This document shows, piece after piece, positions 14,449 to 45,974 of a stretch of DNA of 49,479 bases. Numbering within the stretch: the first letter of the stretch is position 1; every line of letters starts with the position of its first letter. A model generated the notes under the pieces. That model had not been told where the DNA came from, ran no database searches, and worked only from the letters and a program-made list of their open reading frames with translations. Both the position numbers and the translations under genes were made by a program. The stretch comes from a virus (Duplodnaviria; Caudoviricetes): the IMG/VR virus record IMGVR_UViG_3300034521_000398, positions 1 to 49,479 of that record. One strand, given 5' to 3'.

Positions 14449-14476
14449 AAAAAAGAGGGGTTTAATTACCCCTCTT
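14449..14476. terminator. Bidirectional intrinsic terminator
   Basis: AAGAGGGG-loop-CCCCTCTT between convergent genes. Confidence 0.8.
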
Positions 14477-14978
14477 AAAATGGAAACATCTTTCTTTTTG
14501 TTATCCCTACCCTGATACTAAGGTATCCTTTCACCTTGTTTAATTCTTCTATAGCCTTTATTCTATATAATTCAGCTTCATCTTTCTTGGTGATAGAGAA
14601 CCATTCAAATAGACTCATACATACCATATATTCATGACAGGCGGCAGTAATGGGGCTCACAATATTTTTATTGAAGTCTACCGGCATATTAAGAGATAAA
14701 ACATATGATGATGGTTCTTTGAACGCATTATCAGATGAAATAGTCTCAATAACATCTCCTGATACTGTTAAACTAACTTTGTTGTATGCGGATAGTCCAA
14801 CAATGAGTTCGTTGTAGGATTTATCCATAATCCTAGTTATCCTGTCAACATTCCCTGTATTAACCACATCCTGAATGCCGCTCTGTGCTTTAGAGTCTTG
14901 TACTAAATCTCCTGTGATATAAGCGATATTGCTTATATCGTACAAGATAGCATCCCTATGTAGCGTAATGGTTATCAT
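14475..14978 (-). CDS. Putative head-tail adaptor/ring protein (paralog 3)
   Basis: Similar to the two upstream ORFs (ITITL...YD...L.MP..F...Y.V...WF). Confidence 0.6.
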   Translation of the reverse strand: MITITLHRDAILYDISNIAYITGDLVQDSKAQSGIQDVVNTGNVDRITRIMDKSYNELIVGLSAYNKVSLTVSGDVIETISSDNAFKEPSSYVLSLNMPVDFNKNIVSPITAACHEYMVCMSLFEWFSITKKDEAELYRIKAIEELNKVKGYLSIRVGITKRKMFPF

Positions 14979-15466
14979 ACAACGGGAGCTGTTCTTGTCG
15001 GTCTGATCCTTTTATTAAGAGACTCCCTCAGCTCTTCAACATTGTTTTTAGCCAATTCAAAGTATGTTTGAGCTTCATCGGGTTTAGTGATTGTAAACCA
15101 ATCAAATAATACCGAATTGACGATATACTTGTCTATTGCCGATTTTACCGCATCAATTACTCCCTGATTGAAGTTATCCGGCATCTCAAGAGATATTGCC
15201 AAATTCCCTTCCGCAGTGAGCAGTATGTTGCTAGCCGTAGTTCCTGTGCCAGATACATAAGAGCTTAGTTTAGCTTTTAACGTATCAAAAGCATTCCCGA
15301 TAGAGCGAAGAAGCTGATTTTCGTTATCATCCTCATCATTAGCTTGCATATTAGCAACCTGTTCATAGTTATTCCCGTTTTCACGAGATTTACCTGTCAA
15401 GAAAGTCTTATTCTTAACATCATAGATAATTTCAGACTTGTACAGAGTGATTGTAATTGTTCTCAT
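14975..15466 (-). CDS. Putative head-tail adaptor/ring protein (paralog 2)
   Basis: Paralogous motifs; ATGA overlap. Confidence 0.6.
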   Translation of the reverse strand: MRTITITLYKSEIIYDVKNKTFLTGKSRENGNNYEQVANMQANDEDDNENQLLRSIGNAFDTLKAKLSSYVSGTGTTASNILLTAEGNLAISLEMPDNFNQGVIDAVKSAIDKYIVNSVLFDWFTITKPDEAQTYFELAKNNVEELRESLNKRIRPTRTAPVV

Positions 15467-15933
15467 ACTGGATTTACTCTAATTGGTTTTTTTCTAAAGT
15501 ATATTTTTCTTCTTATATCATTTCCGTTTCCTAGTGATTCAGCTTTATAATATTCAGACTCATTTTTATCAATTAAGGCAAACCATTTAGATGCTATTGA
15601 ATTGACGAAATAAGAATGCAAGCTGTTTTGTATCGAGTTGGTTAGGTTGCTATCAAACGAACTAGGCATATCCATCACAACAGTGTATATTTCCGTGTTG
15701 TCTATCGTTTGAGAAGTACTTTCTGTAACGCTTTTGATGAAATTTTTAAATTCATCTGTTGATGCGTTGCATGAGTCTCTCCAAAAACGCTCTAGCAAAA
15801 TGCGATCATCATCAGTAGTGAATACTTTATCGTACGTCAACTCTGATTCATTATTTTTAGCCCCGATATAGCCTGTTAATTTAGCTACATCATCGTAAAC
15901 AGAAGCCTTTTTTATATTTAGCGTTATATCCAT
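15463..15933 (-). CDS. Putative head-tail adaptor/ring protein (paralog 1)
   Basis: Paralogous motifs; ATGA overlap. Confidence 0.6.
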   Translation of the reverse strand: MDITLNIKKASVYDDVAKLTGYIGAKNNESELTYDKVFTTDDDRILLERFWRDSCNASTDEFKNFIKSVTESTSQTIDNTEIYTVVMDMPSSFDSNLTNSIQNSLHSYFVNSIASKWFALIDKNESEYYKAESLGNGNDIRRKIYFRKKPIRVNPV

Positions 15934-16461: not shown

Positions 16462-18000
16462 CTACGTAAATTTATAAAACTTTTTTCTTTGTTTGTTCAC
16501 AAACTCCTTGATTGCTGTCACAAGGGGCAAGTCTTCTTGTGAAAAATCATTCAGAGCCTGTTCAATCATAATCCTCGAACCTGAAAAAGAGTAATACTCT
16601 TCATCATGCCAGGTGTAAGTAGTTTCTTCGCCATCGGAGTTGACCTGGTCCACCTTTTTGTAGCGTATAGCTATACGCTGCTTGCATGATCCATCGTCAT
16701 TCTTCTCAATCACCGAATCCTCTACCTTGTAGTCAATCAGTAAGATAAGCTTGTCTTCTTCGTTATCTCTCTCGAGACAAATCAAATCCTCTACTGATCT
16801 CTTTTGTTCCGCCGTCATACCTTCAAAAGGCGCCTTTTTACGCCTGTTGCGAATAACAGCTCCTAGTCTTTTCTCCATATTTAATTTTTTCAATAAATGT
16901 CTCGTCTGAGCATGTATAGCAAACCCTACACGGCTCGCACAAGCTAGCTCTATCTCCCTGTCTGTCAACCCTTTTTTGCGCAGTTTAGCTACTTGCCGGC
17001 ATAATGCTTTTTTGTTCTTTTTACGTAGCATCAGCCGGTCATGATAGAATACATAACCGCACAAATCGTTACCCATCCATGTTGGCCTGATCGCCCAATT
17101 CTTATTAACGGGCAGCAAAAAGTCACGTGTCAGAGTCATAATAGCAAGTTCGACCATTAATCGAAGGAACACCTTATCACTGTGCTTGATAACGATATTA
17201 TCGGCAAAACGACTGTAGCTGTACAGTCCTCTGCGGACAAAATTATCAAACTTCTGATTGAGGTACTCAACGCCCCGGTTGATCTCAGCAGCTTCAGCTG
17301 CAGTGCGACAGGTAACAATCGAATCGGTTACATACCTGCTTTGCCAGTAGCGGTATTTCTCCGGATCATCCGCAATGCCGAAACAGTTGAGCGCAATACG
17401 ATCAAACGGTGCCAGGTATAACCCCGACAGCAGCTGTGACAGCTTAACGCCTAGAACGATACCCTGCAGAAAGCTATTGATAAACTCATCAATAAAATGC
17501 AGCAAAATAGGGTCTTTGATTTTTTTGCGGATGCACAGCGACATCAACTGATGATCGATGTTAAGGAAGTAGTGATGAATATCAAGCTGAACGAGATAAT
17601 ATAGCTCAGCCTGTGAACATCTGGTAAGCTCCTGCATCTCCTGCCTGACAAAGAAATGTGTGCCTTTGCCTGGAACACAAGCCGGCGAACGATAATAAAA
17701 GGTGTCCATTAGCCACCTCTCTACCGGGAGTAGCGCTGCCCACTGGATCGTGTGATCCGGAACAGCCGACTTGTGTACGGTTCGATGTTTGGGGTAGAAA
17801 ACCTCTTTAGCGACATAAGGTGAAGTCCTCCATGTTCTGGTAGCATAAGCATGAAGAAGATTAGCAAGATTCTCGTCTAAATCAGCTTCGAATAGCCTGA
17901 CTTCACGTCTACCGTGTTTGCCGGCCGAATAACCCCAATAGGCGTTGCTAAAATTCTCATGCGTAGCTATCTGTGTAGATAGGTATCCTTTTCGATTCAT
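16462..18000 (-). CDS. DGR reverse transcriptase with C-terminal extension
   Basis: ACVPGKGTH, QLDIHHYF, GIVLGVKLSQ (DGR-type SQ), RFADNIVI, DLCGY; adjacent TR/VR pair. Confidence 0.93.
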   Translation of the reverse strand: MNRKGYLSTQIATHENFSNAYWGYSAGKHGRREVRLFEADLDENLANLLHAYATRTWRTSPYVAKEVFYPKHRTVHKSAVPDHTIQWAALLPVERWLMDTFYYRSPACVPGKGTHFFVRQEMQELTRCSQAELYYLVQLDIHHYFLNIDHQLMSLCIRKKIKDPILLHFIDEFINSFLQGIVLGVKLSQLLSGLYLAPFDRIALNCFGIADDPEKYRYWQSRYVTDSIVTCRTAAEAAEINRGVEYLNQKFDNFVRRGLYSYSRFADNIVIKHSDKVFLRLMVELAIMTLTRDFLLPVNKNWAIRPTWMGNDLCGYVFYHDRLMLRKKNKKALCRQVAKLRKKGLTDREIELACASRVGFAIHAQTRHLLKKLNMEKRLGAVIRNRRKKAPFEGMTAEQKRSVEDLICLERDNEEDKLILLIDYKVEDSVIEKNDDGSCKQRIAIRYKKVDQVNSDGEETTYTWHDEEYYSFSGSRIMIEQALNDFSQEDLPLVTAIKEFVNKQRKKFYKFT

Positions 18001-23472: not shown

Positions 23473-25284
23473 TTAATTAATAGAATATTCGGCTGTCAAG
23501 GGCGCAACGCCCGGTATGATAGTTGCCTGCACGCGAAAGGATACTTTGCGTGTGTCTAGCCAGTTGGATGCCATGTCTGCATTAGTGATTGTCAAAACCG
23601 ATTCGCTTGCTTTGCGCTCGATAGCCCAAAGGTTGTCTTCAGCCGGCAATCCCGAAGACCTGGTCCACTCCCACAGTACGACATCGGATGTGATATCCAT
23701 CGTGCCGTGTCTCACAACAACGCTGAGTGTTGCTGCTACTGCAGTAACTCTCACCAACTTATCCGGGTTGAGAATCTCAATCGTATAGTTTTTATCGCCC
23801 ACCAGGCACGTCCATTCGGTGTTATTGAATCGAGGCGGCACGCCAATGGTAGACTGTGCTGCCGTACATCGCCAATAGCAGCTCTCGTGCCAAACACCTT
23901 CGCGGACGTATCGTTTCGATACGTCGTTGTAGCCGTTGATATATTGCCGGTTGCTATCCCAAAGCCCGCAGTCTATATCCTCATAAGACGGGTTGCCCTG
24001 GTAGTCTATCCGGAAGAGATCCTGAATGATCGCGCCTCGAGCGTACAGGTAAGGGTTGTTGTAATTCAATGGCAATCCGTTGAATAACTCCAACTGTTTT
24101 GGCCGGCCAAGGATAAGGGAGTAATTAGACTCTTCGAGAATAGGCTTGGTCACACCGGTCAGATACATGATAGCTCCTTCGGTTGTAGAGATATACCAAC
24201 ACGATTGACGATCTTCGTTCGTTGTGTTGCCCCTGCGAGCCACTACCATGCCGTCGGTTGGCGGGTAATTCACGCCGCCTGGCACCATGTTATCAGTGTA
24301 TTGCACAACGATCAGCTCGTTGCTGCCAAGGTCGCGGTCCTGCACGAGAAACCACACCTTGTAATAGTTGCCGTTGAATAGATCATTGACAATGCCATAG
24401 ACCACATCGCCTACGTCAAACGAGGTGAAATCAGTCTTCCACCTTCTGCGCATCTGCAGCTTGTAAGTTAGCTCTGCAACCTGAGTAACTGATTCGATTG
24501 TGCCCGAATCGGAGAATGAGGTATCGCCCTCCATTGCCGACAATCGATTTAAAATTAGCTCCATGAACACCGCCTGTCCGCGAACCTCAAGCCGTGGTGT
24601 TTGTATCTTATCAGGCGTGATCAGAGTACCACGTCCGGCGAGCATAGAATCAATAACCTCTCCAACCTCGATAGGGGATAGCGACTTTAAGCCCTTTATA
24701 AAAGTGATCAATTCAGCGGCCGAATTAGGAATATCTTTACGGAGAAACATTTCAGCAAGAGCTTCATTGTTTTCCGATAACTCCTTTAACAATCTAAGCA
24801 TAGACGGTATATTAGAGTTTGATGGAATATCTGTATCATAGTCAGTAACTATGTCTACATTTCCACCTCCTTGAACTTCTCCAAGTCCGTCAATATCGCC
24901 TACATTATGCCTATGTGACTTAGGAGCATAATCATGCACATGCCCAATCTTAGAATACGTTAAATCATGATTATGATCCTTAGCGGCAAATGGATCACTG
25001 TTTATTAAGATGTTATCAACCTCTAAAGAATTGTACTTAGCCGTATTCCCTAATGTATGCTCTCCTACTGTTAAGTCTTTAGTTACGGTTAAGTCTCCGT
25101 TTATTGTCTGTGTCGGATCGGTAGATACCGCAGCATCGGGATTACCCCATACATTCCTATACTCATTCCAATATATCTGTTCCCCCGCGATGTAAACGTA
25201 ATCACCAGGGCAACCACCGTACGGAAGGAGCTTCCATACTTCCTCAAGTGTATTATATGAACCTAGGTTATGTAGATCAGCCAT
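23473..25284 (-). CDS. Putative tail fibre/spike protein
   Basis: HNH-HVH-HRH (HxH) fibre motifs, FLRKD, LEVRG; Ig-like C-terminus. Confidence 0.6.
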   Translation of the reverse strand: MADLHNLGSYNTLEEVWKLLPYGGCPGDYVYIAGEQIYWNEYRNVWGNPDAAVSTDPTQTINGDLTVTKDLTVGEHTLGNTAKYNSLEVDNILINSDPFAAKDHNHDLTYSKIGHVHDYAPKSHRHNVGDIDGLGEVQGGGNVDIVTDYDTDIPSNSNIPSMLRLLKELSENNEALAEMFLRKDIPNSAAELITFIKGLKSLSPIEVGEVIDSMLAGRGTLITPDKIQTPRLEVRGQAVFMELILNRLSAMEGDTSFSDSGTIESVTQVAELTYKLQMRRRWKTDFTSFDVGDVVYGIVNDLFNGNYYKVWFLVQDRDLGSNELIVVQYTDNMVPGGVNYPPTDGMVVARRGNTTNEDRQSCWYISTTEGAIMYLTGVTKPILEESNYSLILGRPKQLELFNGLPLNYNNPYLYARGAIIQDLFRIDYQGNPSYEDIDCGLWDSNRQYINGYNDVSKRYVREGVWHESCYWRCTAAQSTIGVPPRFNNTEWTCLVGDKNYTIEILNPDKLVRVTAVAATLSVVVRHGTMDITSDVVLWEWTRSSGLPAEDNLWAIERKASESVLTITNADMASNWLDTRKVSFRVQATIIPGVAPLTAEYSIN

Positions 25285-25912
25285 TTATATAGCTTTTAGC
25301 GATTTGAAACAACCGGTCTGAATGAGCATCTTTGAATGTGTTCAATACCAATCCGGCAATATAATAGATTGATGGAGTATATAATTTATCCCCTATAAAT
25401 ACACTATTACTCACTATCTTTGGATAAGATACGTACCTTGCCACCTTAACAATAACTGTCGATCCCTCGACTGATGAATAGAACTCCATCCTCTTCCCTG
25501 TAGACGAGGTTGTAATGGCACAAACAGGCTTATCAATGTTTCCTCTTATTCCGGGGAACTTAGATTTTTGCAGAAAATACTTTGAATCTGTATCTTCTAT
25601 AGGTTCTAGTACAGGTCGTTTCCAATCCGACATCTGAAAGATAGCCAACCGCATAAAATCAGACGGCAATTCTGTATAAGCCATTCCTATACCTATCTGT
25701 CCGCTTTCCCACGATAATTGTGAGGCGAATGATTTATCCCCATCAACCATACTAGATGGAGCCGCCTCCGTTATCGTGCGCACTCCGTCAGGTATCTTTT
25801 GCGTGATTATAGTGTCAAGAGATAAAGCCCCGTCATCTACAATTAAATTCTGAGCATCTTCATCCATACATACTCTCACGGCAGTTATTATATCTTGTAC
25901 ACTGTAATCCAT
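25277..25912 (-). CDS. Putative head-tail connector protein
   Basis: ELPSDFMRL motif; downstream of capsid. Confidence 0.5.
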   Translation of the reverse strand: MDYSVQDIITAVRVCMDEDAQNLIVDDGALSLDTIITQKIPDGVRTITEAAPSSMVDGDKSFASQLSWESGQIGIGMAYTELPSDFMRLAIFQMSDWKRPVLEPIEDTDSKYFLQKSKFPGIRGNIDKPVCAITTSSTGKRMEFYSSVEGSTVIVKVARYVSYPKIVSNSVFIGDKLYTPSIYYIAGLVLNTFKDAHSDRLFQIAKSYING

Positions 25913-26262
25913 TACTCTATGATTAAATTAAAACCAATTTCTTTTAACGCCTCGGTGATAGAAGCTTTTGATTTCTTCACTTCAAGCCCTTTCTCTTTTG
26001 CGAATAGGGCAGCATCAGCTAGGTTGCTGAACTTCACATCTTCAAGAGTAGGAGGTACTTCTACTGTTACTTCCTCTACAACCGATTCCTCTACTGTATA
26101 ATCAATACCATAAACAGAGCGGGCTTTCAGCGCATCGATAACATTTGGATTATTTGTCTCATAGTAAGAACCTCCTCGTGTTAAGGGGATAAACTGAACA
26201 TGTAAGCACTTTCCATTAATCATTAAATGGAATGATATATTTTTTTTAGATATAAATTTCAT
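25912..26262 (-). CDS. Hypothetical structural-region protein
   Basis: TAATG overlap; follows capsid. Confidence 0.6.
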   Translation of the reverse strand: MKFISKKNISFHLMINGKCLHVQFIPLTRGGSYYETNNPNVIDALKARSVYGIDYTVEESVVEEVTVEVPPTLEDVKFSNLADAALFAKEKGLEVKKSKASITEALKEIGFNLIIE

Positions 26263-26331: not shown

Positions 26332-27723
26332 TTATGCTGACGCTAACTTAATACGTGCGTGAGCCTTAGGATAACGGAGATACAAACATGCAACCTCCTG
26401 CAGAACAACGGCATCAGTGTTTCTAACACCAGCTTTCTTTAATTCAAGAACCGATCTGCTCCATGAGATGAACGTTCTCTTAGTTAAGAAACTTGGGTCC
26501 ATAATCAAGCCTTGATCAGACATACCGTTCTGGTCAAATAGTTCATGGTGCATAACAAGTACTTCACCGAAATCGGTATCAAACGATTTGAATTTTAGGT
26601 TCCAAACTTCGACTGATTCTTTCAACTTGAATCTCTCTGATTTAATCTTAGAGAACACAGCCATCAAATCAGAACCGAAGAAACCAACCTTTCGTTTGTT
26701 TCCAACGCCACTACCTACAAATAGATCTTTAGCGATATCCACCAACTGATCATCGGTCATAGTTGTTGCCCCACTTGTTGCATCATATGTTCCTGCGGTA
26801 ATATCCTTTCCGGCCATCCACCAGATACCTCCTGTAAAGTAAACAGGCTGATTAGATTTTTTAGGATTAGTGATTTTACCTTTTGCTCCAAATAGGAATG
26901 AGTTTTCCTGAACCAAACGCATATCATAGATTGCATCTTCTTCCAAGTCAGAGAAGCTCCAATTTACTTCCTTAACGGCAATCTTATTGAATGTTGATTC
27001 CTCTACCTGAATCATGAAATTCTGGCAATACTGAGTCTCGGGAGTAGGAATGTTAGAGAACACAGCAGCTTGAGCATCAATTTCAGCGCATGCTTTACCC
27101 ATACGAACGAGTACGGTACCGGCAGTGATAGCAGGAAGCCACGTCGGCTCTCCATTAGTTGCTGTCAATCCGTTAACCGCTCTTACAGTAGGCAATCCGC
27201 TTGTATCCGACAAACCGACAACATGCAGAACCAAATCTTCGTCTGCATCGGTTGCACCTCCGTCTACTTTACCTTTAACACCGACTACACGAATGGTATC
27301 ATCCACATCAAACATGCTCTCATCATTAACTCCTAATTCATAGGTAGTTCCTGTTGACTGAGCAGCGGCAATAGCAGTCTTTAGGGTAGTCTTAATAGGT
27401 TTTGAACTGACTGTGTAATACTTAACTTCAAATGACTTCGATTCCATAGCTTTTCCGTACCTTGAAATCTGGTCAACAGGAGTTGACATAGGACGAATTT
27501 TTGTGATTCGTTGGTCAATCTCAGACAGATACAATCCATCTACAGCCGACCTACCTATCGCCTCGGTTAATCCTGATTGAACGGTTACACCGCCATCGGC
27601 AAGTGGTGCCGGTTCAGCATCGGGAACAATACCCTCAGCCATCAAAACATTACCTGCCGCCCCTGTAGCGAATGCCAAAACGACAAGCAATAAATTCACT
27701 AACAATAATAAACTTTTCTTCAT
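26332..27723 (-). CDS. Major capsid protein with hydrophobic N-terminal leader
   Basis: ETQYCQNFMIQVEES...QENSFLFG...FTGGI (DUF5309/SU10-like HK97 fold); preceded by scaffold, followed by a terminator. Confidence 0.8.
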   Translation of the reverse strand: MKKSLLLLVNLLLVVLAFATGAAGNVLMAEGIVPDAEPAPLADGGVTVQSGLTEAIGRSAVDGLYLSEIDQRITKIRPMSTPVDQISRYGKAMESKSFEVKYYTVSSKPIKTTLKTAIAAAQSTGTTYELGVNDESMFDVDDTIRVVGVKGKVDGGATDADEDLVLHVVGLSDTSGLPTVRAVNGLTATNGEPTWLPAITAGTVLVRMGKACAEIDAQAAVFSNIPTPETQYCQNFMIQVEESTFNKIAVKEVNWSFSDLEEDAIYDMRLVQENSFLFGAKGKITNPKKSNQPVYFTGGIWWMAGKDITAGTYDATSGATTMTDDQLVDIAKDLFVGSGVGNKRKVGFFGSDLMAVFSKIKSERFKLKESVEVWNLKFKSFDTDFGEVLVMHHELFDQNGMSDQGLIMDPSFLTKRTFISWSRSVLELKKAGVRNTDAVVLQEVACLYLRYPKAHARIKLASA

Positions 27724-27739
27724 AACACATTAATTAAAA

Positions 27740-28519
27740 TTATTTTCTCTTTATTCTTCTCTCTGCTCCTTTATTCCAAATATCATCAGCATTCGATACT
27801 CTATCTAGTGCTCCAAAATTAGGAGTTGGTGCCGGCTTACCTGAATTACCTGCAATCATAGGAGGTAGGTCTGGAGTAGTCCTTTTCAGTTTTTCTTCAA
27901 TCTTAGCGTTTCGACCTTTAATCTCTGCTTCAAGAGCGGCATCCTCTACTGCCTGATCAAAACTCAAAGCTTTAAACGCCATCTCCCAAGTCGAACGTTC
28001 AATCCTATTCACGATACCATTATCTATAATACCGGCAATAAACTCAAACGCTTGCTGAACCTGTTCATCACTAAGACCTTTCTCTTCTTGAAGTTTATCT
28101 AACTCCTCTAATGAATTGGATAAATTCTTCTCGGCTTCGGCTTGTAGCTTTTCGTTGTTAGCTTGCTTTTCGAGGTATTCTGAACGAGCCTCCGCTACCT
28201 TTTCCATATTTTCAGGATCATTCATTGCATCCATGAAATCAGGGCCAAACATTTTGACTAGTTGAACGACAGGATTCTCGCCTGCTTTCCATGCCATTAA
28301 GAAAGCTGCGGAGCGAGGATCAGAAGAAAACATCTTAGAAAGACCCTCTTCATTTTTTTGGTATTCCGACATTCTACTGTCGTAATTGTCGTAATCGTCG
28401 TAAATTTTTCCATACAAAGCGTCTTCTTCGTCAAAATTATCCTCGGGGTATTTAGCCCTAAGCTTTTCGAGAAGCAAGTCTCTTTTCGTCTTAACTACTT
28501 GATTATCAGCCTTTTCCAT
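27740..28519 (-). CDS. Putative capsid scaffolding protein
   Basis: Acidic, helical/coiled-coil, directly upstream of the capsid gene. Confidence 0.6.
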   Translation of the reverse strand: MEKADNQVVKTKRDLLLEKLRAKYPEDNFDEEDALYGKIYDDYDNYDSRMSEYQKNEEGLSKMFSSDPRSAAFLMAWKAGENPVVQLVKMFGPDFMDAMNDPENMEKVAEARSEYLEKQANNEKLQAEAEKNLSNSLEELDKLQEEKGLSDEQVQQAFEFIAGIIDNGIVNRIERSTWEMAFKALSFDQAVEDAALEAEIKGRNAKIEEKLKRTTPDLPPMIAGNSGKPAPTPNFGALDRVSNADDIWNKGAERRIKRK

Positions 28520-28561
28520 ACATTCTATTTGTTTTATACTATTTATCGTTTATGATACGAA

Positions 28562-28622
28562 CAAATGTAAAGTTCTTCTTTTGATTCATGTTTGTATGTA
28601 TTAACTCTTATATGTAAATTTG
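28562..28622. promoter_or_regulatory. Divergent promoters (leftward late-type; rightward TTTG-N20-TAAATTTG)
   Basis: CAAATGTA at 28562 with TATGTATTAA at 28595; TTTG at 28591 with TAAATTTG at 28615. Confidence 0.65.
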
Positions 28623-28627
28623 TTTGC

Positions 28628-29050
28628 ATGGGATACAAAGACACAGAATTTGAATACCGCTATCAAAGGGATACCGAGTTAATCAAAGCATACAATACTG
28701 TGCTTTCAGACATAAGACCTCCCTTTACCATGTGCGACGTTTTAGCACGTGCGGTGAAACTTCCCTGTTCACGTTTCTGGGTTTCTGAGACTAGAGCAAA
28801 AACTGTAATAGCTAGAATGAAGCATGGATACGATCTTTCAGACATGAAACCGAACAAAAGGAAGATGTTTCAAGAGATATACAGAAGAGTAGAAGAACAG
28901 GAGAAACTTGGTCCTGTGGAAATGGTAGACATACTAGAATCTGGTGCTCCCGAATTCTATCTAACTACAGAATCCGCCAAGGTGATAATCCATTACGCTA
29001 AAAAGAGATGGTTAGACAAAAAATTAAAGCAGCTTCGGTTCTATTGGTAG
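28628..29050 (+). CDS. Hypothetical basic protein (candidate regulator)
   Basis: ATG at 28628; two internal P.xFWVS/PEFYLT repeats. Confidence 0.6.
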   Translation: MGYKDTEFEYRYQRDTELIKAYNTVLSDIRPPFTMCDVLARAVKLPCSRFWVSETRAKTVIARMKHGYDLSDMKPNKRKMFQEIYRRVEEQEKLGPVEMVDILESGAPEFYLTTESAKVIIHYAKKRWLDKKLKQLRFYW

Positions 29051-29463
29051 GTTATTTCATACCTTTTAGTATCTCACCTTATATGCATCTATATTATATG
29101 TTCATGCACGCATCCTTACTACACTTAGTGATTAACATGTATGCGGTGTTCCTATGCACTAAGGAGCGGACCAACTTATTACACGTTTACATATTAGGAG
29201 TGATAGCCTCTTTATTATCCCAATCAGACAAACCGACAGTAGGAGCTTCCGGGCTTGTTTATATCATGCTTGGTATGAACGTATTCGGAGCGTGGAGATC
29301 GTTTTTTATAGGAGCTGCATTCACTATATTTTCATGCTTCATGCCAGGAGTCAATTATAAGATTCACGTTATATCATTCATTTTCGGGCTAATATATTCA
29401 GCCATAGAAAGAGAATATAAATCATACAATGAGAAGAGAGAGTATATTAAAGGAAAACGATAA
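29008..29463 (+). CDS. Rhomboid-family intramembrane serine protease
   Basis: FMHASLLHLVIN, VGASG (catalytic Ser), VNYKIHVISFIFG (catalytic His); about 5-6 hydrophobic segments. Confidence 0.85.
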   Translation: MVRQKIKAASVLLVGYFIPFSISPYMHLYYMFMHASLLHLVINMYAVFLCTKERTNLLHVYILGVIASLLSQSDKPTVGASGLVYIMLGMNVFGAWRSFFIGAAFTIFSCFMPGVNYKIHVISFIFGLIYSAIEREYKSYNEKREYIKGKR

Positions 29464-31495
29464 TAGGAACAAGGAGATTAACGCTCTATTTGATCCTCTT
29501 ACGGGAGAAGGTGCTATCTTAGATAGATTCACCCTCTCTCTTCCTGATTTTTATATTCCAAAACAATACATACCGGTACAGATGAAGAATGTACCTTTAA
29601 TCAAAAAACTAATCAAACACAAAACAATAAAAGACTTTTTGATAAACGAGTTCGGATATTACGATGAGAATAATAAACTTGAGGTAGAAAAAGGACTTAT
29701 AAAAGCAAGAGTTAAGCACGACTTTTGTTTCTGGGCATTTTTCGCAGCAAAGATTAAAAATAAAAAAGGAGGGAAAAACATCCCATTTAAACTCAACAAA
29801 CCACAGATAAAGCTTCTCAAGGTCTTAGAAAGAATGAGGCTAGAGTGCAAGCCGATAAGAATAATCCTACTAAAAGCAAGACAGTGGGGAGGATCAACAC
29901 TCATTCAGTTATATATAGCATGGATTCAGCTAGTTCACAAAGAAGGGTTTTATTCTGCTATTATCGCTCAAGACTCCGGCACATCACGTAAGATTAGAGC
30001 GATGTACACTAAGATGCTTATGGATTACCCGCCATTCCTGCTTGATGGAACGGATAACAGTCCATTAGAGCTAAAGCCATATGAGGGTTCTCACAACGAC
30101 ACTATTGTTACCCAAAAAGGCAAGATAGTAAGAGATACCGTTATATGTATCGGAACAGCCGAACGACCTGATTCTATCCGTGGTGGTGATATATCAGAAT
30201 CCCACATGTCTGAGGTTGCATTTTGGAAAGCGACAGACGGGAAGACACCGGAAGATATTATTCGCTCCATATCTTCATCAATACTACTTGAAGAGTTGAC
30301 TCTTGATGCAATAGAATCAACACCAAACGGAACGGGGAACTTCTTCCACAAAGAATGGCTGGCCGCCAAGAATGGAGAATCAGAAAGAGAGCCCGTATTT
30401 GTTGCGTGGTATGAAATCCCGATGTACTCTAAACCTTTCAAGACCAAAGAAGAAAAAGAATCTTTTGCCGATTGGATTATAGACAACAGAAACGGTACCT
30501 ATTCAACAGATAGGAGCGAACCAGGGACGTACTATTGGTACCTATGGAATCTAGGAGCTACTCTTGAAGCAATTAATTGGTACATAACAAAAAGAAAAGG
30601 ATACAACTCGCACGCAGATATGGCAGCCGAGTTCCCTAGTGACGATATAGAAGCGTTCAAGCACTCGGGCAAGATGGTGTTTGATAGAGTTAAGCTCGAA
30701 GAATTAAGAAAGTCCACTAGAAAACCTCAATACATAGGTGATGTTATCGCAGACGGATATGAGGGAAGAAACGCCATTAAGAATGTTCGATTCACGCAAG
30801 ATACACAAGGATGTTTGTCCGTATGGGCTCTTCCCGAAGAATACATAAAAAACAGATATGCTGTCATTGTTGATGTGGGAGGACGGTCAAAGGGAGCGGA
30901 CTTCTCCGACATCCTAGTGATAGACCGATACTGGATGATGGAAGGCGATAAACCCGAAGTAGTGGCTGAATGGCATGGTCATATAGACCACGACTTATTA
31001 GCATGGAAAGCTGCACAAATAGCTACCCTGTATCACAATGCACTATTAGTTATCGAGTCTAACACACTAGAAACAAAAGACAAAGAGCGTGATACAGACG
31101 GGAATCATACCGAGTTTATACTTAATCAGATTGGAAGTGTATATGATAACCTATATGCTAGAAAACAATCAGAAGAGGATATAATTGCAGGCGTACCTAG
31201 AAAATATGGATTCCACACTAATACGGCCACTAAGCCTATGATTATAGACCACTTAATTAAGATGGTAAGGCTACAGGCATGGGTAGAAAGATGCAGCGAG
31301 GCTATAGACGAATTTGGCGTTTACGAGAAGAAACAGAACGGATCATTTGGTGCGATACCCGGAGAACATGATGATAGATTAATGACAAGAGCTATCGGAC
31401 TGTTTATCGTTTATTGCGAGATGGAACTTCCGAAAATTATAGAAAAAATTAATAAACCACGCGCAAGCCGGCCGGCAAGTGCGGCAACAATTTAG
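29429..31495 (+). CDS. terL: Terminase large subunit
   Basis: LLKARQWGGST, HMSEVAFW, IESTPNG, IVDVGG, LVIESN, HDDRLM. Confidence 0.92.
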   Translation: MRRESILKENDNRNKEINALFDPLTGEGAILDRFTLSLPDFYIPKQYIPVQMKNVPLIKKLIKHKTIKDFLINEFGYYDENNKLEVEKGLIKARVKHDFCFWAFFAAKIKNKKGGKNIPFKLNKPQIKLLKVLERMRLECKPIRIILLKARQWGGSTLIQLYIAWIQLVHKEGFYSAIIAQDSGTSRKIRAMYTKMLMDYPPFLLDGTDNSPLELKPYEGSHNDTIVTQKGKIVRDTVICIGTAERPDSIRGGDISESHMSEVAFWKATDGKTPEDIIRSISSSILLEELTLDAIESTPNGTGNFFHKEWLAAKNGESEREPVFVAWYEIPMYSKPFKTKEEKESFADWIIDNRNGTYSTDRSEPGTYYWYLWNLGATLEAINWYITKRKGYNSHADMAAEFPSDDIEAFKHSGKMVFDRVKLEELRKSTRKPQYIGDVIADGYEGRNAIKNVRFTQDTQGCLSVWALPEEYIKNRYAVIVDVGGRSKGADFSDILVIDRYWMMEGDKPEVVAEWHGHIDHDLLAWKAAQIATLYHNALLVIESNTLETKDKERDTDGNHTEFILNQIGSVYDNLYARKQSEEDIIAGVPRKYGFHTNTATKPMIIDHLIKMVRLQAWVERCSEAIDEFGVYEKKQNGSFGAIPGEHDDRLMTRAIGLFIVYCEMELPKIIEKINKPRASRPASAATI

Positions 31496-31813: not shown

Positions 31814-31827
31814 GCTCCCCTTTTTTT
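31798..31827. terminator. Terminator between convergent genes
   Basis: AAAAGGGAAGC-ACTAA-GCTCCCCTTTTTT. Confidence 0.65.
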
Positions 31828-33700
31828 ATTGCATCGGAATAGGAGGTAGCGCATCAGGTACTTCTCCTTTCTCTAGCTTTTCTCGCTGTGTCTGTAAACT
31901 CTGGAGTAATGTATCTGCAAACGGGAAGTCTCCATGCTGTAGAAGCTGCTCGATAGATATCTGCCCCTGTCTCCATATCTCCATCAAGAAATCATTCGCT
32001 ATCTGACGATAAACAGGAGTAGAGGTTGACTGAACCACGCTCAAATCAAATTCAACGTCGGATATCTTCTCCGGATCGTACTCGATTAATGTACTAGCTT
32101 TATTCCCAACGATATTAATCACTCTCTTATCATCATAGAATTGCTGTATATTCTTCACTTTCTTGTAAGCCGCATCTACTATGAAGCTATCAAACGTCTC
32201 TAGTAAGTCAAGCAGTGAAGAGCTTGCATTTTGCATCTGTTGAGAATATAAAGCGGCACTCATTCCAGAATACCCGGGCTTTCCTTGAAGAGCTCCCGTT
32301 ACACCTGTAACGTCCTCCATCATATTCATTTGGAGTTGAAGCATTTCGTGAATACCTATATTAGTAGAGTTTGTAGATACCTGCTTTGGAAGCTCGACAC
32401 CCGGCTTGGATTTAATAGCGATAACTCCATTAAACCTAGTCCATTCCTCTGCAATGTCCTCAATAGACAAGTTATCTGGAATAAGTTCCTCGGGGAAGAG
32501 TAACACACCCTTAGATGATGACCTTATTATCCAATCATTCATCATGATAAGTCTATTCACATACTTCTGTTGGTCTATAGCATCCGCTACAAACGAATGA
32601 ATCTCCCCATCGAGGAAAGGATATAATTTAATCGTGTATGGGTGAGACTTATGCTTAAATGGTGTTTCTCCCTCAGATAGAATATCTCCGAATGGGGTGA
32701 GGAATCTATAATACCAATAGGAATCCATAAACCACTCGTACTCTATAAGAGGTATATCATCCTCTTCCATTCCGGCCTCTAATCCTTGTTGGATACGTGA
32801 CCTGTTTTCTAGCTTAATATTATTCTCGTTATCGACTTCGTCCTTGTAGAAATCTCCGTTGAGATAATCATGGCACCTGAACCTAGGTTTTTGTTCGATT
32901 CTCCACACCTCGATAACCCTGCACATATTAGTATTGTAAGGCGAAAAGAAATCTATGTTCTTTAGGTCTGAATACCCAAACTTACTTAAGTACCCTGACA
33001 TATATTCCCTATGACAAGCATTAGAATAAATCTGTCTAAGCTTACTAACATCAAATGGTGATTTTGCAAACTTAGAACATAAATCTTCAAAAGTCAAATC
33101 GTGTATCTCACCTATAAGAGAGCAATCCCAATGACGAATATCACGCATGTTGCTATCCACAAAGAAGTTATTGAGAGAAACCATATCAGTCCACGTATCC
33201 ATCTTATCATTTCGCCATCCATAACTCTCTTTCTGAACAGCCGCTCCCGATATTAAGAACTCTTCAAATGTACGCCCATTAACCTCATTCATGCGGTTTA
33301 CCTGATAATTACACTGTAAAGCTACCGACATCGTTTCTCCTAGAGATTGTTCATCTCTGTCTCTGGCTACACAGGTAGGTTCTTTAGACTGTGAGCGATA
33401 AGTTCCCATCACAGTCCTTACAAGCCTCCTTATCAAGTTGTTTTTCAGTGGGATTCCTCCCTCTGATATGATGTAATCCTCTTCCTTTACGGTTTTATCT
33501 CCGTACTTTACTAAATCAGACCACTGATCTCCATAGCAGAACTTTTTGGACCGCTCTCTGTCTTTTCTGAATTGATCCATGTTAGACCACGCATATTGGG
33601 CTTGGAGAAGAACGTCAAACATTCGCTCTTCTGTATACTCTTTCTGAGTTCTTACGGAATCCAGATTAGATATTTTGCTTTTTCTGATAAGTTTTCTCAT
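31826..33700 (-). CDS. Portal protein (P22-like)
   Basis: FCYGDQW...NLIRRLV...DQQKYVN...EDVTGVTGALQG. Confidence 0.85.
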   Translation of the reverse strand: MRKLIRKSKISNLDSVRTQKEYTEERMFDVLLQAQYAWSNMDQFRKDRERSKKFCYGDQWSDLVKYGDKTVKEEDYIISEGGIPLKNNLIRRLVRTVMGTYRSQSKEPTCVARDRDEQSLGETMSVALQCNYQVNRMNEVNGRTFEEFLISGAAVQKESYGWRNDKMDTWTDMVSLNNFFVDSNMRDIRHWDCSLIGEIHDLTFEDLCSKFAKSPFDVSKLRQIYSNACHREYMSGYLSKFGYSDLKNIDFFSPYNTNMCRVIEVWRIEQKPRFRCHDYLNGDFYKDEVDNENNIKLENRSRIQQGLEAGMEEDDIPLIEYEWFMDSYWYYRFLTPFGDILSEGETPFKHKSHPYTIKLYPFLDGEIHSFVADAIDQQKYVNRLIMMNDWIIRSSSKGVLLFPEELIPDNLSIEDIAEEWTRFNGVIAIKSKPGVELPKQVSTNSTNIGIHEMLQLQMNMMEDVTGVTGALQGKPGYSGMSAALYSQQMQNASSSLLDLLETFDSFIVDAAYKKVKNIQQFYDDKRVINIVGNKASTLIEYDPEKISDVEFDLSVVQSTSTPVYRQIANDFLMEIWRQGQISIEQLLQHGDFPFADTLLQSLQTQREKLEKGEVPDALPPIPMQ

Positions 33701-33742: not shown

Positions 33743-36700
33743 TTACTCTATCGCATCTAAAGCTTCAACCAATTGAGTCTTAATAAGATTAAGAGTGTTA
33801 TTCAAAGAGGCCTTTTCTTCACCGTCTGCGGTTTTTAATTCGTCATAGAGATAATCAATCTCTTTCTGATATTCTTTAAATACCTCATAACGCTTGTATT
33901 CGGGTGAATTATAGAGCTTATTTGCTTTCTCGGCAAACCCAAACACTCCTTTATACGCTTCTTTTTCGTACCCTTTTAATCGTTGATTGGTCAGATCGTA
34001 TTCTTTACGATAATTGTTATAGGAATTTCCAACCCTAGAGAATGCATTTTTTTCGTCAGTCTCTGATAAGAACCTATTAACAACGGGAACATTCCGCATG
34101 ACACGCTGATCTTCATCCCAAATCATAGAGATTGTTTTCCATGTCTGATTAAGAGTCTTACCCATTCCACCCAGATAGCCCTCCACTAGATGTTCTGCTA
34201 TTGACGGATTAAGGTTTATAGATCCTTTGGTATACTTATCTCCTCCTGTAATCTCATTCAGAAATTCAGCCGATTCCACAAGTTGTTTATTGGTACCTTT
34301 GAACGCTTTGGTATATTCAGGCATATCCTCATTGAATGGAGTTTTCTTGTAAATTGGTTTACCAAAAAAGTCCTCATTGGTATAAGACTGGACAATCGGT
34401 TTTGCTACATCAGGCCACATAGTAGTCATTATATCACCATCATTAGACAGTGGATCTATTGGCAGTAGTTCAGTAATCTGACTTACCATTCTTAAACCAA
34501 CATTCTCACCTTTCATCTTTCCACCTGACCATTGTGTAAACATCTCACCCATTCCGTAGAAAGCTCTTAGCTCTATAGGTAGTGGTATGGTTAGGAATCT
34601 GTCACCGCCTAACCATAGACAGAAGTTATTTTTTCTAACCCACTCAGGAAGATTATCATAAGAATCATCATCACCTCCAAACATGTTCATCAACATTTGA
34701 TTCATAAGAGGAATAAGTATTCCAGCAGAAACAAAACCACCAACAACACCGCTAAACTTAATAGGATTATTCTTCCCTAACCTATAGAAATTATTCAAGG
34801 ACTGAACAGCGGCATTAAAGAATAAATACAATGCTTTTAGTGTGGTAGCGCCATTGCCACCTGCGCCCTTTTTATTGAAGTTAACAGTAACCTCTTTAGC
34901 GTCATTGATAGACTGAGTAACACTTCTTCCCATTTCACGAGAAGTAAGATAAGTGTTGAACCTAGATATGTCCTCTGCACACTTATTACTGAATTCAATA
35001 AAGCTAGCTAAACCTTTAAAAGCGGGAACGATACCTAGCGTAGTAGGAGTTGTCACCTTTCCTGGCTTCAATCCAATGATCCTACCAATATCCACTTTCC
35101 CATCTAATTTTAAAAGGTCTTTTTCGATTAACTTTTTGTACTCATCGACAGATGTTAACATGGAATATCCCGTTTCTCCTCCGTTTTCTAGGAATTCTTT
35201 GAAATATTTATCCATTCCAAAGTCTTTAAGCTCACCTTTATACCTCCTCCTCATAAGACCGGCTATGTTAGCCGTTGTTCTCGGAAGATTAGATGTGAAT
35301 CTCTTAGAGTATTTCCCATCTTCCTTGATTAGAACAGCAGAAGAAGAGAATATTAAATCTCGTGATAAGTTACTTATCACAAAAGCAGGGTTCCTCGTTG
35401 TGAAGTTGGCTGATAGCTGCCTATTCGCCCATCCTATCCACTCTATCAATTTATGATTTACCGCATCAGGGTTTGTAAGACCGTTAACAGCCTGAGCAGC
35501 TCTAGGATTGCCATTGACAAAAACAACCTGCTCTTTGCCATTCCTTTTAACAACAACAGCATGCTGTCTCTTTTCCCTGTCATTTGCTCTATAAGAGATA
35601 TTAAGACCTTTCTTGTCTTTCTTCGCACGACCCTCTTTTTGGAGTTCACGCATTAGATTGTAGTGAGCTTCGACAGCCTCGCTAACTTCTTCTGCAGTGG
35701 CACCTTCTGGAATGTCTGGGAGAGACTCCACCCAGTCAGGTGCTTTGTCCGTACCATTATTAACGTACCACATCTCCTTAACGGTTAACAATGGCGTTTT
35801 ATGATTCAATGCCATGTTGAGGAACTTCTGTTTCATGAGATTCCTATTCCCTTGCAGTATGGCGCTTTCAGCCATATTAGCTATAGTGGCTATAGGATCA
35901 TCAGATACAGACAAACGCCCTTTAGCCGTCACAATGGGAGCATTAAATACCGGTCTGTCAAGTTCTATGTAGTCGTAAACATCGGCTGCGGTATCTTCTT
36001 TCCATCCTCTAAGCGGAACATAGTATGAGAACATCTCTTTTATGTTATCATAGTTATCCTTACTCATTAAGCCGGATGTATATGTTTTACGAAGTGTCTC
36101 TTTTGTTGCGTTATTAATCTTATCCCATAAATCAGACGTATTAACATCAGCCTCAAATGACTCTACAAACGCTTTAGCTTTATTCTCAAAGTCTTCTTTA
36201 TAGAGAGATGACAATCCGGAATAATCCGTTCCCAACTTCTCTTCAAGATATGTTTCATAAGCTTTACTTTCTTTTTCGTCCAACTCTATCATCTTAGCAT
36301 CATACGCTTCTTTATCAATAAGATTCTTATATAACGCAAACTCTAGGTTAGATCTTTCTATCTTGGTATCTTCTTTGGCTTCATTTCTAGCATCTCTTTG
36401 AGCGAATACAACATTTCTCTCCAATCCATGCTTAGATATGAGATACTGGTTGAATTCTTCACGTGATTTAACCTTTAATATCTTAGACATCTCCTTGACT
36501 ATCGGAGTAAAGAAGTTAGTGTGATAAAACTCTGCTTCGTAGGCGTTCTTAGATGATAATTGATTTTCATGAATATACGCGTTCTCGAAGTCTTCTATCT
36601 TACCCGTATCTTTCTCTATTGACTCTTGCAGTTTCTTAAGCCCCAACATGCTGTCTTGATAGGACTCCTGAAACTTGTATAGAGAACCTTTGAACTTATC

Positions 36701-39700
36701 GTCATAATTCTCACCGTCCCTAAACCTTATGTCAGGATTGTTGGGATCAAAACTTCCCACGTTGTCAGTAGCTGACTTAATCTGATTAGGCTCAAAAACT
36801 ACAACCATTTTAGAAGAACCATCATTGATAATTGCTCCATCAGTTTTTTTATCCTCAATCTCATCAAGCATAAAAGACTGGTAATTATCCCAAAACTCAA
36901 TAGAATCCATTTTTTTTAAGGCATTCCCCAAACCATTCTTTACAGCCCATCTATTGTCAGCCATTATCGGCTTTCTTATATTCAAAAATACAGGAATTAT
37001 GGCTCCCTTAACTGCAGAATCAAATTCTGAAGTGGAATAGTCCTTGGCAATACTCTCTTTATCCGTAAAAAAGAATCCCGATTCATCGTAAGAATATCGA
37101 CTTCCAATCATATCCTTTCTGAACCGTTCTATACTTTTGGAAAGCGTACCATGATAAACCACCAAAGGCTCTCCATTCTTATCCACCACTTTAGAAGCCT
37201 CCTCTGGATTATTTTGCCAATCTCCAAACCAATCCTTAAACTCCTGAGTACGCACTTGCGCCCATTGTTTTTCGGTTAGCTTAGTAGGTTCACCGTTGGG
37301 AGCTTTCATGTACGTTCCATCCTGCTTTGCGTTTCTAATGATTGCTTCCACGCTGTTTTCATCACGGAACATTTTGTCTTTCATTAACTCATTTGCGGCA
37401 TTCCTGAATACAGAGTTCTTTTCCAGATTATTCTTGCTAGTCCACAATATGTACTTAACATCGTTATCGCTTAATTCGACATCCATGTATTTACGCAGGA
37501 ACTCTCTGACAACTGCTTTTATCTTACCAAAGAACGATGGAGTTTCGTCCATTTCAGCTATCCTTGCTAAGTACTCCTCTACATCTGTATTATCCTTCAT
37601 ATCCTTGCTGACATCGGCAGGAAGTTGCTTTTTAACCTTATCAAGGAAAGAATCAAAACCTTCTCCCATTAAAGACCTAAGACCCTTGTGTCCTACCACT
37701 TCATGCAAGAATGTGCGTTTAGCATCATTTACACTTGTTGCGTTTGATGTGATTATAACAACCTCCCCGGATGATACATCATACCATCCTTTTGAATTCT
37801 TCATTCGTTTTTCCATTGATTTGTTATCGTTGGAAACATCTTCTGAATTAATCATTTTAACGGGAACTCCCATCTTTTCAGATAGAGATTGAAGCGTATC
37901 CCTTATTTCTTCATTAGGAGAAACGGAAAAACTTGAATCTTCCCTAAATCTTATATCTGAGCTTCTGAAGTTAAACCTTTTAGAAGGCAATATGATATTA
38001 CCATCATCATCACGAGTTATTAGATCATTGAGTTTTCTATTATTTTTAGTGTTTCTATATTTATAATCATTTTTGTCATCATATCCCCATTCATTAATAT
38101 CGTTTCCATCCCAATATAGGTTTTCGGCTGGAACTTTATCTTCCATTATCTTATAATCGCCATCAATATTCCCTTTCCCGTGCATCTCTGCATATGATCT
38201 TGATAATGTTATCCAATCTCCGTTTCTGACATTACCTTCTTTGATATTTTTAGGAACTGCTCTATAAATGGTAACAGTAGGTTTTTCTCCACGTTTGATA
38301 GCGGATAAAGCCTCTTTTATAGATGAAATACTTTCCTCTCTTTCCTTTGTGCGATTCATTTTAAACTGCTCTTCCATGGATAGCATTACATTATCTTTGT
38401 TTTGAGCTATGTCAACCATATTCTTGTCAATACCATCTTCGTCAAAAGACGGTGCACGGTGTGACATTCTAAAATCGTCAGTTAATATATATCCGTTTCT
38501 TCTAGCAACTTCATTGATAATATCACGTGCCCTTTCTTGATTATTCTCCAAAGATTTTATATATTCAGCATCCAATTCATTATCAGTCATGACTTCGAAT
38601 TCTTTTAACCGATTCCTTTCAGCATCCAATTCTTCTTGAATGCGTTTTTGCGCAGCCTCCATAATACCTCGTTCCTCCATAGTTCGCTGCACGTATTCTT
38701 CAGTGAGCTTATCTACACTTCCAAACCTCTCATATAAATCTGATTTAACTGGTCTGAATATTTTATTCAGCGCGCTAAGACCTTTATCCGAAAAAGGATC
38801 ATCTGATTCCATATTGTTTAAAAGTATCTGTCTCCTTATCTCATGCAATGCCCTATGAGCACCTCCTGTTTTTCCCATTTTCATCGATTCAGCATAGAGC
38901 TTAACAAATTTTTCATCCAATCCGTATTTATTAGCAAAAGATGAAACTTCATCATCTGAATTCCTGAATCTTACATCCGTAAATGGAACAGAAACAACAT
39001 CTCCGTTCTCTAACCTAAAATGGTGATACTCCTGATTGCTTCCTGAATATTTATGTCCAGCAAAAGGTAACATCCCATTTTCCAAGGCATGCTTTGCACC
39101 AGAAGAGGCAGCTACTACTTCTCCCCCGAAATATTCTTTTAGTTCGTCAAGAATCCTAGACGGATCGGATGTGTTTTCTGTGTTATCAGAAAGGTAGTCA
39201 TATATTTCATCTTGATTAATTTCACGCTCAAATTTCCCGTCTCTGAATCTAACATCAGAATCTCCAACAAGTTCTATCTTCAAAGGACTTACAACCTCAT
39301 AGATACCATTATCGTTAAGCTTTATTCTCCCTTTCTCAATAACCTTGTAGTTTTTAGCGTCAGCTAATGGAATTCTACCTTTAATATCCACAACATCATC
39401 AACACCGTCTAAGCTCTTGATTCTATTCAAGGAAGATATTGTAAATGTTCCATTACCATTATCTTCTATTTCAGCATCAAAAACTCTAACGTCTTTATCG
39501 TTTGTTTGATTATGAAGATACTTATCCGCATTTAAACCAAACGATACTTTATTGACTTTCTTGGGAATACTTTTATATTCGGAGAAAGGTTTTGTTTTTC
39601 GCTTAGAACTTTCAACCCATTTATTGAAGTCCTCAACCGGAACACCGGTTATATTACCCAATCCTTGCCATCCATCCTCGTAGTTAGACAGATAAGCATC

Positions 39701-45714: not shown

Positions 45715-45974
45715 TGAAGATAGAAAACATTATCGGTTGGGCACTGACAATTGTAATATCAATCGCTGGAGCGTGGTACACTATTGACGCACGAGTTTAC
45801 AGCGTTGAGAAAAAAATCGAGTTGCTGCAGATGCAGATAGATAACTGCAACAAAGTGCTAGATAAGCAACAGGAAGATATGGAGGTCGTTAAAGACCTAT
45901 TTAATCGGATAGACAAGAATATTGTCGAGATACGAGGAATACTTAATACCAAAGCAGATAAGAAATACAAATGA
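45714..45974 (+). CDS. Single-TM coiled-coil protein of the lysis cassette (holin/antiholin-like)
   Basis: N-terminal TM then coiled coil. Confidence 0.5.
   Translation: MKIENIIGWALTIVISIAGAWYTIDARVYSVEKKIELLQMQIDNCNKVLDKQQEDMEVVKDLFNRIDKNIVEIRGILNTKADKKYK

Follow-up and report, generated by a model that had tools for sequence, protein, structure and literature searches.

Support for a functional link between a capsid-protein leader and a phage-encoded rhomboid protease in Bacteroidales phages, with cleavage of the leader predicted

Here, we analysed a 49,479-nucleotide stretch of DNA from a tailed virus (Duplodnaviria; Caudoviricetes), positions 1 to 49,479 of the IMG/VR record IMGVR_UViG_3300034521_000398. 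This whole stretch, hereafter the window, is a provirus record rated 79% complete. Its major capsid protein (MCP) carries an N-terminal basic-hydrophobic leader, and a gene for a compact rhomboid intramembrane protease lies 1.3 kb from the MCP gene. A comparison of relatives revealed that both traits were repeatedly lost together, so that a functional link between leader and rhomboid is well supported, while the mechanism, cleavage of the leader by the rhomboid, is predicted from sequence. The central features are as follows.

26332..27723, minus strand: MCP, 463 amino acids (aa), SU10_MCP family, with an N-terminal leader (PF17236, E = 1.4e-35; phrog_1328, major head protein; match to PDB 9IN6)
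27631..27723, minus strand: MCP leader, residues 1-31 (sequence, hydropathy, conservation in 62 homologues and motif counts in 51 leaders)
29008..29463, plus strand: compact rhomboid intramembrane serine protease, 151 aa (PF01694 above the cut-off, invariant columns and a GlpG profile match)

The original prediction, made from the letters of the window and followed up in this work, described a basic tip and a hydrophobic helix at the start of the MCP, and the open reading frame (ORF) indeed begins with MKKSLLLLVNLLLVVLAFATGAAGNVLMAEG. The 19-residue Kyte-Doolittle hydropathy reaches its maximum of 2.55 at residue 5, while the remainder of the protein peaks at 1.0. The MCP matches Pfam family SU10_MCP (PF17236) with 123.7 bits at a cut-off of 24.1, and a search with its family profile finds the PDB major capsid 9IN6 (E = 5e-7); SU10-type MCPs (PF17236) are presumed here to have the HK97 fold. 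A leader is present in the MCP N-termini of 80 close viral loci and is therefore not a chance feature. In the window, it consists of the basic tip, the helix (about residues 5-23), a G-x4-G-like turn and a V-L-M-A-E-G junction, in which the cut is predicted after A29 or G31. Across 62 MCP homologues, A29 is invariant, and G21, V26 and M28 are at least 90% conserved.

Junction motifs, start contexts and charges were counted in 51 representative leaders. The family junction reads G-x3-G-V-x-M-A, with Gly at P9 in 36 leaders and at P5 in 34, one of V/M/F/L/W/Y at P4 in 46, and Ala at P2' in 31. In these counts Ala at P1 was fixed by the search pattern, the same Ala being independently invariant in the 62 homologues, and the motif picker mis-placed 3 of the 51 sites and missed 3 rows. 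The first 12 residues carry a mean net charge of +2.9, and the stretch following the helix one of −2.1. With this +2.9 charge and a hydropathy of 2.55, the leader shows the basic n-region and hydrophobic h-region of Sec-type signals, while hydropathy scans of the portal and of the scaffold revealed no hydrophobic leader in either.

Translation from the internal Met of the junction (MAEG) had been named as an outcome that would speak against the prediction. A Met is found at the junction in 42/51 leaders, and 8/51 have none in the junction region. For the ATG of the leader, the AT fraction of the context is 0.80, and 67% of cases have A at −3, the corresponding values for leaderless MCP starts being 0.72 and 75%. 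At the internal junction ATG, the AT fraction is 0.39 and 26% of cases have A at −3, and this poor context ruled out M28 as the main start. The leader thus appears to be translated from the upstream ATG, and an internal start is unlikely. The leaderless MCPs start 34-58 residues before the core, and in leader-bearing MCPs 29-61 residues separate the conserved Ala from the core; leaderless capsids begin about where the cut of the leader is predicted.

The rhomboid ORF scored 30.2 bits against PF01694 (S54; cut-off 22.6) in the profile search that had been proposed as a check on the protease. The HxxxxHxxxN, GASG and transmembrane His motifs, previously described as intact, are present as H34-x4-H39-x3-N43, G79-A-S81-G and H120. 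Two alignments, one of 48 and one of 67 homologues, show H34, H39, N43, G79, S81 and H120 as the sole invariant columns. These six catalytic-motif residues are kept in 67/67 diverse rhomboids at a mean column identity of 27%, which argues for selection for catalysis. By motif, the enzyme is catalytically intact, and proteolytic activity is predicted. The family profile matches GlpG structures with E = 1e-12 over positions 10-158, aligning along the GlpG core, and the charge of the loops alternates as expected, so that a six-helix membrane core is predicted. In the rhomboids, the number of K and R residues is 2.3 at the N-terminus, 1.7 in L2, 2.7 in L4 and 2.4 at the C-terminus, and lower in L1 (1.1), L3 (0.2) and L5 (0.2). 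This pattern suggests the orientation of GlpG, whose active site faces the periplasm, and the same placement is predicted for the phage enzyme. In the window rhomboid, L1 is shorter than in the relatives, and a His replaces the usual L1 Arg. Database records already annotate the gene as rhomboid, and with the window protein alone as query one homologue was found. In two further loci (L655:14935-15927 and L656:1143-2159), a fusion joins the rhomboid to the protein downstream, at the end of which there are a membrane helix and a basic tail.

The relatives of the window are Bacteroidales prophages, according to their record titles, and three cultured Bacteroides phages. The gene neighbourhood used for their comparison comprises the following features.

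25277..26262, minus strand: two conserved genes after the MCP gene (116 aa and 211 aa) in the same head cassette (phrog_23743, phrog_22135; synteny)
27740..28519, minus strand: probable scaffolding protein, 259 aa (phrog_22323, unknown function; assigned from position and acidic, coiled-coil-like composition)
28520..28627, no strand: intergenic gap from which the capsid operon and the ORF140-rhomboid-terL operon diverge (sequence, ORF map)
28628..29050, plus strand: ORF140, 140 aa, function unknown (phrog_27246)
29429..31495, plus strand: terminase large subunit, terL (phrog_24361, terminase; a homologue matches phrog_5989, terminase large subunit)
31826..33700, minus strand: P22-like portal (PF16510, E = 2.4e-37; no hydrophobic leader in the hydropathy scan)

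On one side of the gap the scaffold-like ORF is followed by the MCP gene, and on the other side ORF140 is followed by the rhomboid gene and terL. The rhomboid therefore lies across a divergent gap from the MCP, as had been noted, but the two genes are not adjacent, since the 259-aa ORF and the 140-aa ORF stand between them; the reported overlap with terL amounts to 35 nt. The same order is found in the cultured phages BS-TP4 and BF1-TP2. ORF140 mostly lies immediately upstream of the rhomboid gene and is retained after rhomboid loss, including in leaderless genomes. The probable scaffold gene was found in 12/12 compared genomes, its only family lead being a sub-0.9 one to Phage-scaffold (PF09306), and an ESM Atlas search yielded no family for either the scaffold or ORF140.

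Among the 80 close viral loci, 76 carry the rhomboid; three of the four misses end before its position and one is interrupted. MCP, ORF140 and terL are all in view in a redundant set of 448 loci, of which 437 were scored as having leader and rhomboid, 8 as having neither, and none as having a leader without rhomboid. The remaining three calls of a leaderless MCP with rhomboid were errors, as L016 and L022 do have leaders and L208 contains a run of N. Such co-occurrence among close relatives could result from shared descent, and therefore independent losses were sought. In five genome loci the capsids start at the mature-like end. Four of these keep terL and ORF140, but their assemblies contain no phage rhomboid, the 3.5-5 kb downstream of ORF140 being rhomboid-free, and the fifth is uninformative as it lacks terL.

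Subsequently, 401 genomes of one genus were evaluated, of which 42 were capsid-positive. The prediction was set beforehand, and the leader class was assigned before the rhomboid search, although the test was truly blind for just 12 leader and 8 leaderless genomes. A phage-type rhomboid (E ≤ 1.2e-19) was present in 27/27 leader genomes and in 0/15 leaderless genomes, although 13 of the latter contain a full terL. The best rhomboid matches of the leaderless genomes (E ≥ 1.4e-8) are in frames of 273-337 aa, which occur in leader genomes too. A phylum-wide sample of 401 genomes yielded only 3. In a clade of leaderless phages, 75 of the 76 loci showing ORF140 and terL have no rhomboid, and ORF140 mostly adjoins terL. 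The rhomboid is also missing from all five leaderless records at 98-100% completeness, although these records have the same portal, terminase, scaffold and ORF211 genes and the same large protein (3373 aa) as rhomboid-bearing phages. In this single contrast, the rhomboid is the only family present in 7/7 rhomboid-side and 0/5 leaderless genomes. ORF104 splits 6/7 versus 0/5 and was rejected, as it is absent from several loci with leader and rhomboid; an 86-aa ORF likewise splits 6/7 versus 0/5.

To count independent changes, a quick MCP tree (LG+G4) was calculated with the leader columns excluded. Nine of its 105 rows, which had no clear rhomboid status, were excluded, and L513, L499, L509 and L512 were left unscored. 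The 96 scored rows comprise 58 with both traits, 22 with neither, 15 with the leader only and 1 with the rhomboid only, and the leader changes nine times on the tree. Six of the seven independent pairs that differ in the leader are concordant in the rhomboid and none is opposite (median p = 0.031). For pairs differing in the rhomboid, about 6.5 of 11 are concordant in the leader, 4.5 show no difference and, again, none is opposite. The expectation that both traits would co-occur in relatives is thus borne out by the joint losses, but not by the 15 leader-only rows, which belong to one clade. Since leader-only rows outnumber the single rhomboid-only row, the rhomboid relies more strongly on the leader than the leader does on the rhomboid. 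The rhomboid depends on the leader like an enzyme on its sole needed substrate, and the leader depends on the rhomboid in phages and prophages, not in the domesticated clade described below.

In the rumen Prevotellaceae, the head module of a group of elements (L242-L263, L275-L293 and L476-L483) is broken into distant pieces. An apparent rhomboid loss in 13 rumen Prevotellaceae loci was a rearrangement artefact, the gene being located at a distance of more than 8 kb or on a different contig. This rumen clade has weakly hydrophobic, Asp-containing leaders and includes several losses of leader and rhomboid, possibly representing a second domestication. Furthermore, one genome (G428, L463:8024 onward) with a rhomboid but no capsid in view was explained by a Mu-like insertion right after ORF140.

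The repeated joint loss suggests that the rhomboid likely cuts the leader, and we consider it probable that the cut falls at the Gly-rich V-L-M-A-E-G junction. The basic-hydrophobic leader of 29-31 residues would insert into the inner membrane in the N-in orientation, similar to a signal peptide, which would bring the junction to the outer leaflet, facing the active site of the rhomboid. The charge bias of the leader combined with the charge pattern of the rhomboid likewise suggests that junction and active site meet on the periplasmic side. A Gly-rich acidic linker, which leads to the core over 29-61 residues, would then span back across the membrane, so that the folded shell domain stays in the cytoplasm. 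The cut would free the membrane-held capsid protein, whose shell domain could slide free for head assembly in the cytoplasm. We propose this geometry, an outer-leaflet cut with a cytoplasmic shell domain, only tentatively, and it is the weakest step of the mechanism. Cytoplasmic assembly seems rational because the leader is lost easily and repeatedly, portal and scaffold are leaderless, and the same genes serve in leaderless phages.

It had been proposed that procapsids assemble tethered to the inner membrane and are released by the rhomboid. The functional link supports this idea in part. However, as the junction is predicted to be periplasmic, simple cytoplasmic tethering is not established, and clipping within the helix of whole procapsids held at the cytoplasmic face would need an extra step. 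The predicted cleavage could act on monomers or on assembled procapsids. A likely benefit would be the staging or timing of head assembly at the membrane, which T4 and SPN3US achieve by other means. By extension, head maturation by a virus-encoded rhomboid acting on type II, membrane-parked capsid subunits might be a trait of widespread Bacteroidales temperate phages, with a domesticated offshoot resembling a gene transfer agent (GTA) relying on host enzymes; we regard this wider picture as possible but doubtful.

According to the available part of a study on rhomboid substrates, the enzymes recognise a small P1, a large hydrophobic P4 and a hydrophobic P2' residue of any size, and this motif may lie outside the helix (PMC2941825). 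Four tested substrates were cut at the top (N-terminal end) of the helix, Gly at P2' blocked TatA cleavage, and type II cleavage is discussed in that part only as looping back, for Star (PMC2941825). The leader junction agrees with this P4/P1/P2' rule in two registers, V-x-M-A↓ or M-A-x-A/G↓, the arrow marking the putative cut.

Several observations weigh against the proposed cleavage. The A29 register of the window has Gly at P2', and only the G31 register satisfies all three positions of the rule in PMC2941825, as far as its available part describes it. The charge of the leader corresponds to a type II orientation, unlike the substrates cut at the helix top in the same part of that study. 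A signal-peptidase-like A-x-[A/G/S] site follows the conserved Ala in 42/51 leaders. In a second, order-wide test, which added 26 capsid-positive genomes among 401 of the order, the prediction, again set beforehand, partly failed, as 15 of the 20 leader-bearing genomes have no phage-type rhomboid. The other five do, all five leaderless genomes are without one, and one element is broken. A Pfam search revealed no extra phage-type rhomboid in the 15 leader-only genomes, and hence the leader can persist without it. In addition, a phage locus (L703, IMGVR_UViG_3300017585_000296) combines an intact rhomboid with a leaderless capsid, and another genome (G426, L461:11849-13761) has a rhomboid but no capsid or scaffold match.

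All 15 leader-only cases fall in one clade, starred in the tree (loci L634-L646, L649 and L294; genomes G1133, G899, G1045, G924, G986, G1120, G849, G1101, G882, G1072, G1175, G1046, G925, G1149 and G323). In this clade, an intact scaffold-MCP-ORF116-ORF211 cassette is embedded in housekeeping genes, often with fumarate hydratase as its divergent neighbour, and terL, portal and ORF140 are scattered elsewhere in the chromosome. In six of the 15 genomes terL shares the contig of the cassette at a distance of 14-385 kb, and it is on another contig in the rest. Leader ends such as YALA↓AI and FAMA↓AV are found, and the genomes carry host rhomboids. By its gene layout, the clade looks like a host-domesticated, GTA-like element, to which PMC12946183 may be relevant. 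In L703, the capsid is nearest to the leaderless clade (68%) and scaffold, ORF140 and ORF211 are nearest to a leader clade; this phage is therefore a mosaic in which a capsid-gene swap, undated, is likely. The G426 genome is rated 99% complete and has no detectable capsid or scaffold genes between ORF116 and ORF140.

Part of this evidence would also fit an unlikely alternative, in which a host enzyme, signal peptidase I or a rhomboid, cuts at A-x-A/G and the phage rhomboid clears leader remnants or stalled precursors. The n-h-c layout and N-in charge bias of the leader, together with the A-x-[A/G/S] site in 42/51 leaders, resemble a signal peptide, and this scheme explains the asymmetry of 15 leader-only rows versus 1 rhomboid-only row as well as the YALA↓AI and FAMA↓AV ends in domesticated genomes that possess host rhomboids. 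However, signal peptidase I favours small residues at −3 and −1, and the −3 residue relative to the invariant Ala is L/M/I/F in 35/51 leaders. The small-residue rule is thus breached at this Ala in 35 leaders and satisfied two residues later in 42. Furthermore, such cleavage usually accompanies export, a poor fit with a cytoplasmic capsid, and the rumen clade keeps the rhomboid despite its weakly hydrophobic leaders with Asp. Export itself forms the basis of a second, quite improbable scheme: the leader would bring some or all MCP to the periplasm, where the rhomboid would free it for a decoy or exclusion role or for assembly there, and cytoplasmic MCP would arise from an internal start. Here, the charge bias, which sets the junction on the outer side together with the active site, is in agreement, as is the junction Met of 42/51 leaders, but the internal ATG has a poor context (AT 0.39; A at −3 in 26%), 8/51 leaders have no Met there, portal and scaffold are leaderless, and the leader was dropped repeatedly while the same head genes were kept.

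The rhomboid might instead cut another membrane protein of phage or host, for example the spanin-like lipoprotein encoded at 46771-47286, the match with the leader reflecting shared ancestry and gene decay. With its lipobox, C-terminal helix and basic tail, this protein shows the usual orientation of rhomboid substrates, and the fusions in L655 and L656 join the rhomboid to a similar C-terminal-helix protein. L703 and G426, which keep the rhomboid without a leader-bearing capsid, and several losses in dispersed, possibly decaying elements point in the same direction. However, a crude pattern scan detected a spanin-like protein in only 3/7 genomes with rhomboid and leader, and a similar lipoprotein follows ORF140 without rhomboid in L639 / G1120. 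Moreover, co-loss in 6/7 independent pairs, one of them with complete phages, is not expected from shared ancestry and decay, and we judge a different substrate to be improbable. Cleavage of the capsid leader by the phage rhomboid remains the preferred reading.

The window further encodes an integrase, DnaB, the P22-like portal, the terminase and a 3375-aa polyvalent protein (33743-43870, minus strand) with LPD14, InPase, ART-PolyVal and LPD38 domains. The latter is preceded by a T7 gp14-like gene, and both are likely ejection proteins. A reverse transcriptase (phrog_1423; 16462-18000, minus strand) located after the tail genes likely belongs to a diversity-generating retroelement. An N6/N4 DNA methyltransferase is fused to an SNF2-type helicase at 5481-7994 (plus strand), and three tandem paralogues of unknown function (phrog_19255, phrog_35482) occupy 14475-15933 (minus strand), their family being present in 12/12 compared genomes. 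The ORF at 46771-47286 (plus strand), with its lipobox, C-terminal helix and basic tail, has no PHROG match; it lies after holin-like (45714-45974) and endolysin (46209-46781) genes, and from this layout we take it to be unimolecular-spanin-like.

As anticipated from the letters of the window, no conventional prohead protease was recognised: scans with Pfam- and PHROG-type profiles gave no such family match among the 41 window ORFs, nor in 48 of the 64 called ORFs (those below 1500 aa) of the complete relative G1224, small and very large ORFs being only partly covered. This result says little, because P22/T7-like heads mature without a prohead protease and the window is only 79% complete.

To our knowledge, tailed-phage heads are thought to mature by soluble proteases or by none. 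While the parts found here belong to known families, the system joining a capsid leader and a phage rhomboid appears undescribed. A literature search, mostly outside subscription papers, returned no link between a phage rhomboid and a capsid leader, the papers returned being on DLP3 and DLP5 and, in one case, on a halovirus. If the prediction is true, a membrane step is added to head assembly in common gut phages, and leader and rhomboid form a natural enzyme-substrate pair of unusual orientation. The idea is directly testable with cultured phages and natural leaderless variants. In the Bacteroides phages BS-TP4 (PQ571277), BKO1-TP3 (PQ571269) and BF1-TP2 (PQ571263), the MCP is 50-56% identical to that of the window and labelled DUF2951 or DUF5309, and a rhomboid gene separates ORF140 from terL; the records of BS-TP4 and BF1-TP2 annotate it by that name. 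BS-TP4 was detected in 31.3% of 930 viromes, and the word 'rhomboid' is absent from the available main text on these phages, whose supplements may annotate the gene (PMC12694917).

In comparison with known systems, the removal of an N-terminal piece of the capsid protein at maturation is familiar from the delta domain of HK97. The proteases of T4, SPN3US and HK97 are soluble prohead proteases, and their propeptides are not membrane helices. A membrane anchor does occur in the hepatitis C virus core, which is freed by host signal peptide peptidase; however, this is a eukaryotic RNA virus using a host aspartyl protease and a C-terminal anchor. In T4 and SPN3US, proheads form at the inner membrane, their release needs a phage protease, and an N-terminal piece of the capsid protein is removed, as described in the available part of PMC7411985. 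Unlike in T4, SPN3US and HK97, no soluble prohead protease family was matched here among the 41 window and 48 G1224 ORFs. A phage-encoded rhomboid is also known from the Stenotrophomonas phage DLP3 (gp93), but roughly 57 kb separate it from the head genes, it adjoins WcaG/WecE genes, the DLP3 head cluster has a separate serine protease, and the available part of the report describes no capsid link (PMC7326821).

The rhombosortase/GlyGly-CTERM system (TIGR03902) likewise pairs a dedicated rhomboid with a Gly-rich motif plus helix and was found by co-distribution, but its signal is C-terminal on exported proteins, while the leader here is N-terminal on a capsid protein (PMC3237569, available part). 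TIGR03902 is the best NCBIfam match of two rhomboid homologues, which score 17.3 and 37.8 bits at a cut-off of 84, and the NCBIfam search gave no match to it for the window rhomboid. Finally, GlpG of E. coli and Providencia AarA with TatA share with the present system the catalytic motifs, the removal of a short N-terminal piece and a junction with hydrophobic P4 and small P1 (PMC2941825, available part). In contrast to GlpG and AarA, the rhomboid here is phage-encoded, with only 151-170 aa, and its proposed substrate is a soluble capsid protein with the helix before the cut (type II).

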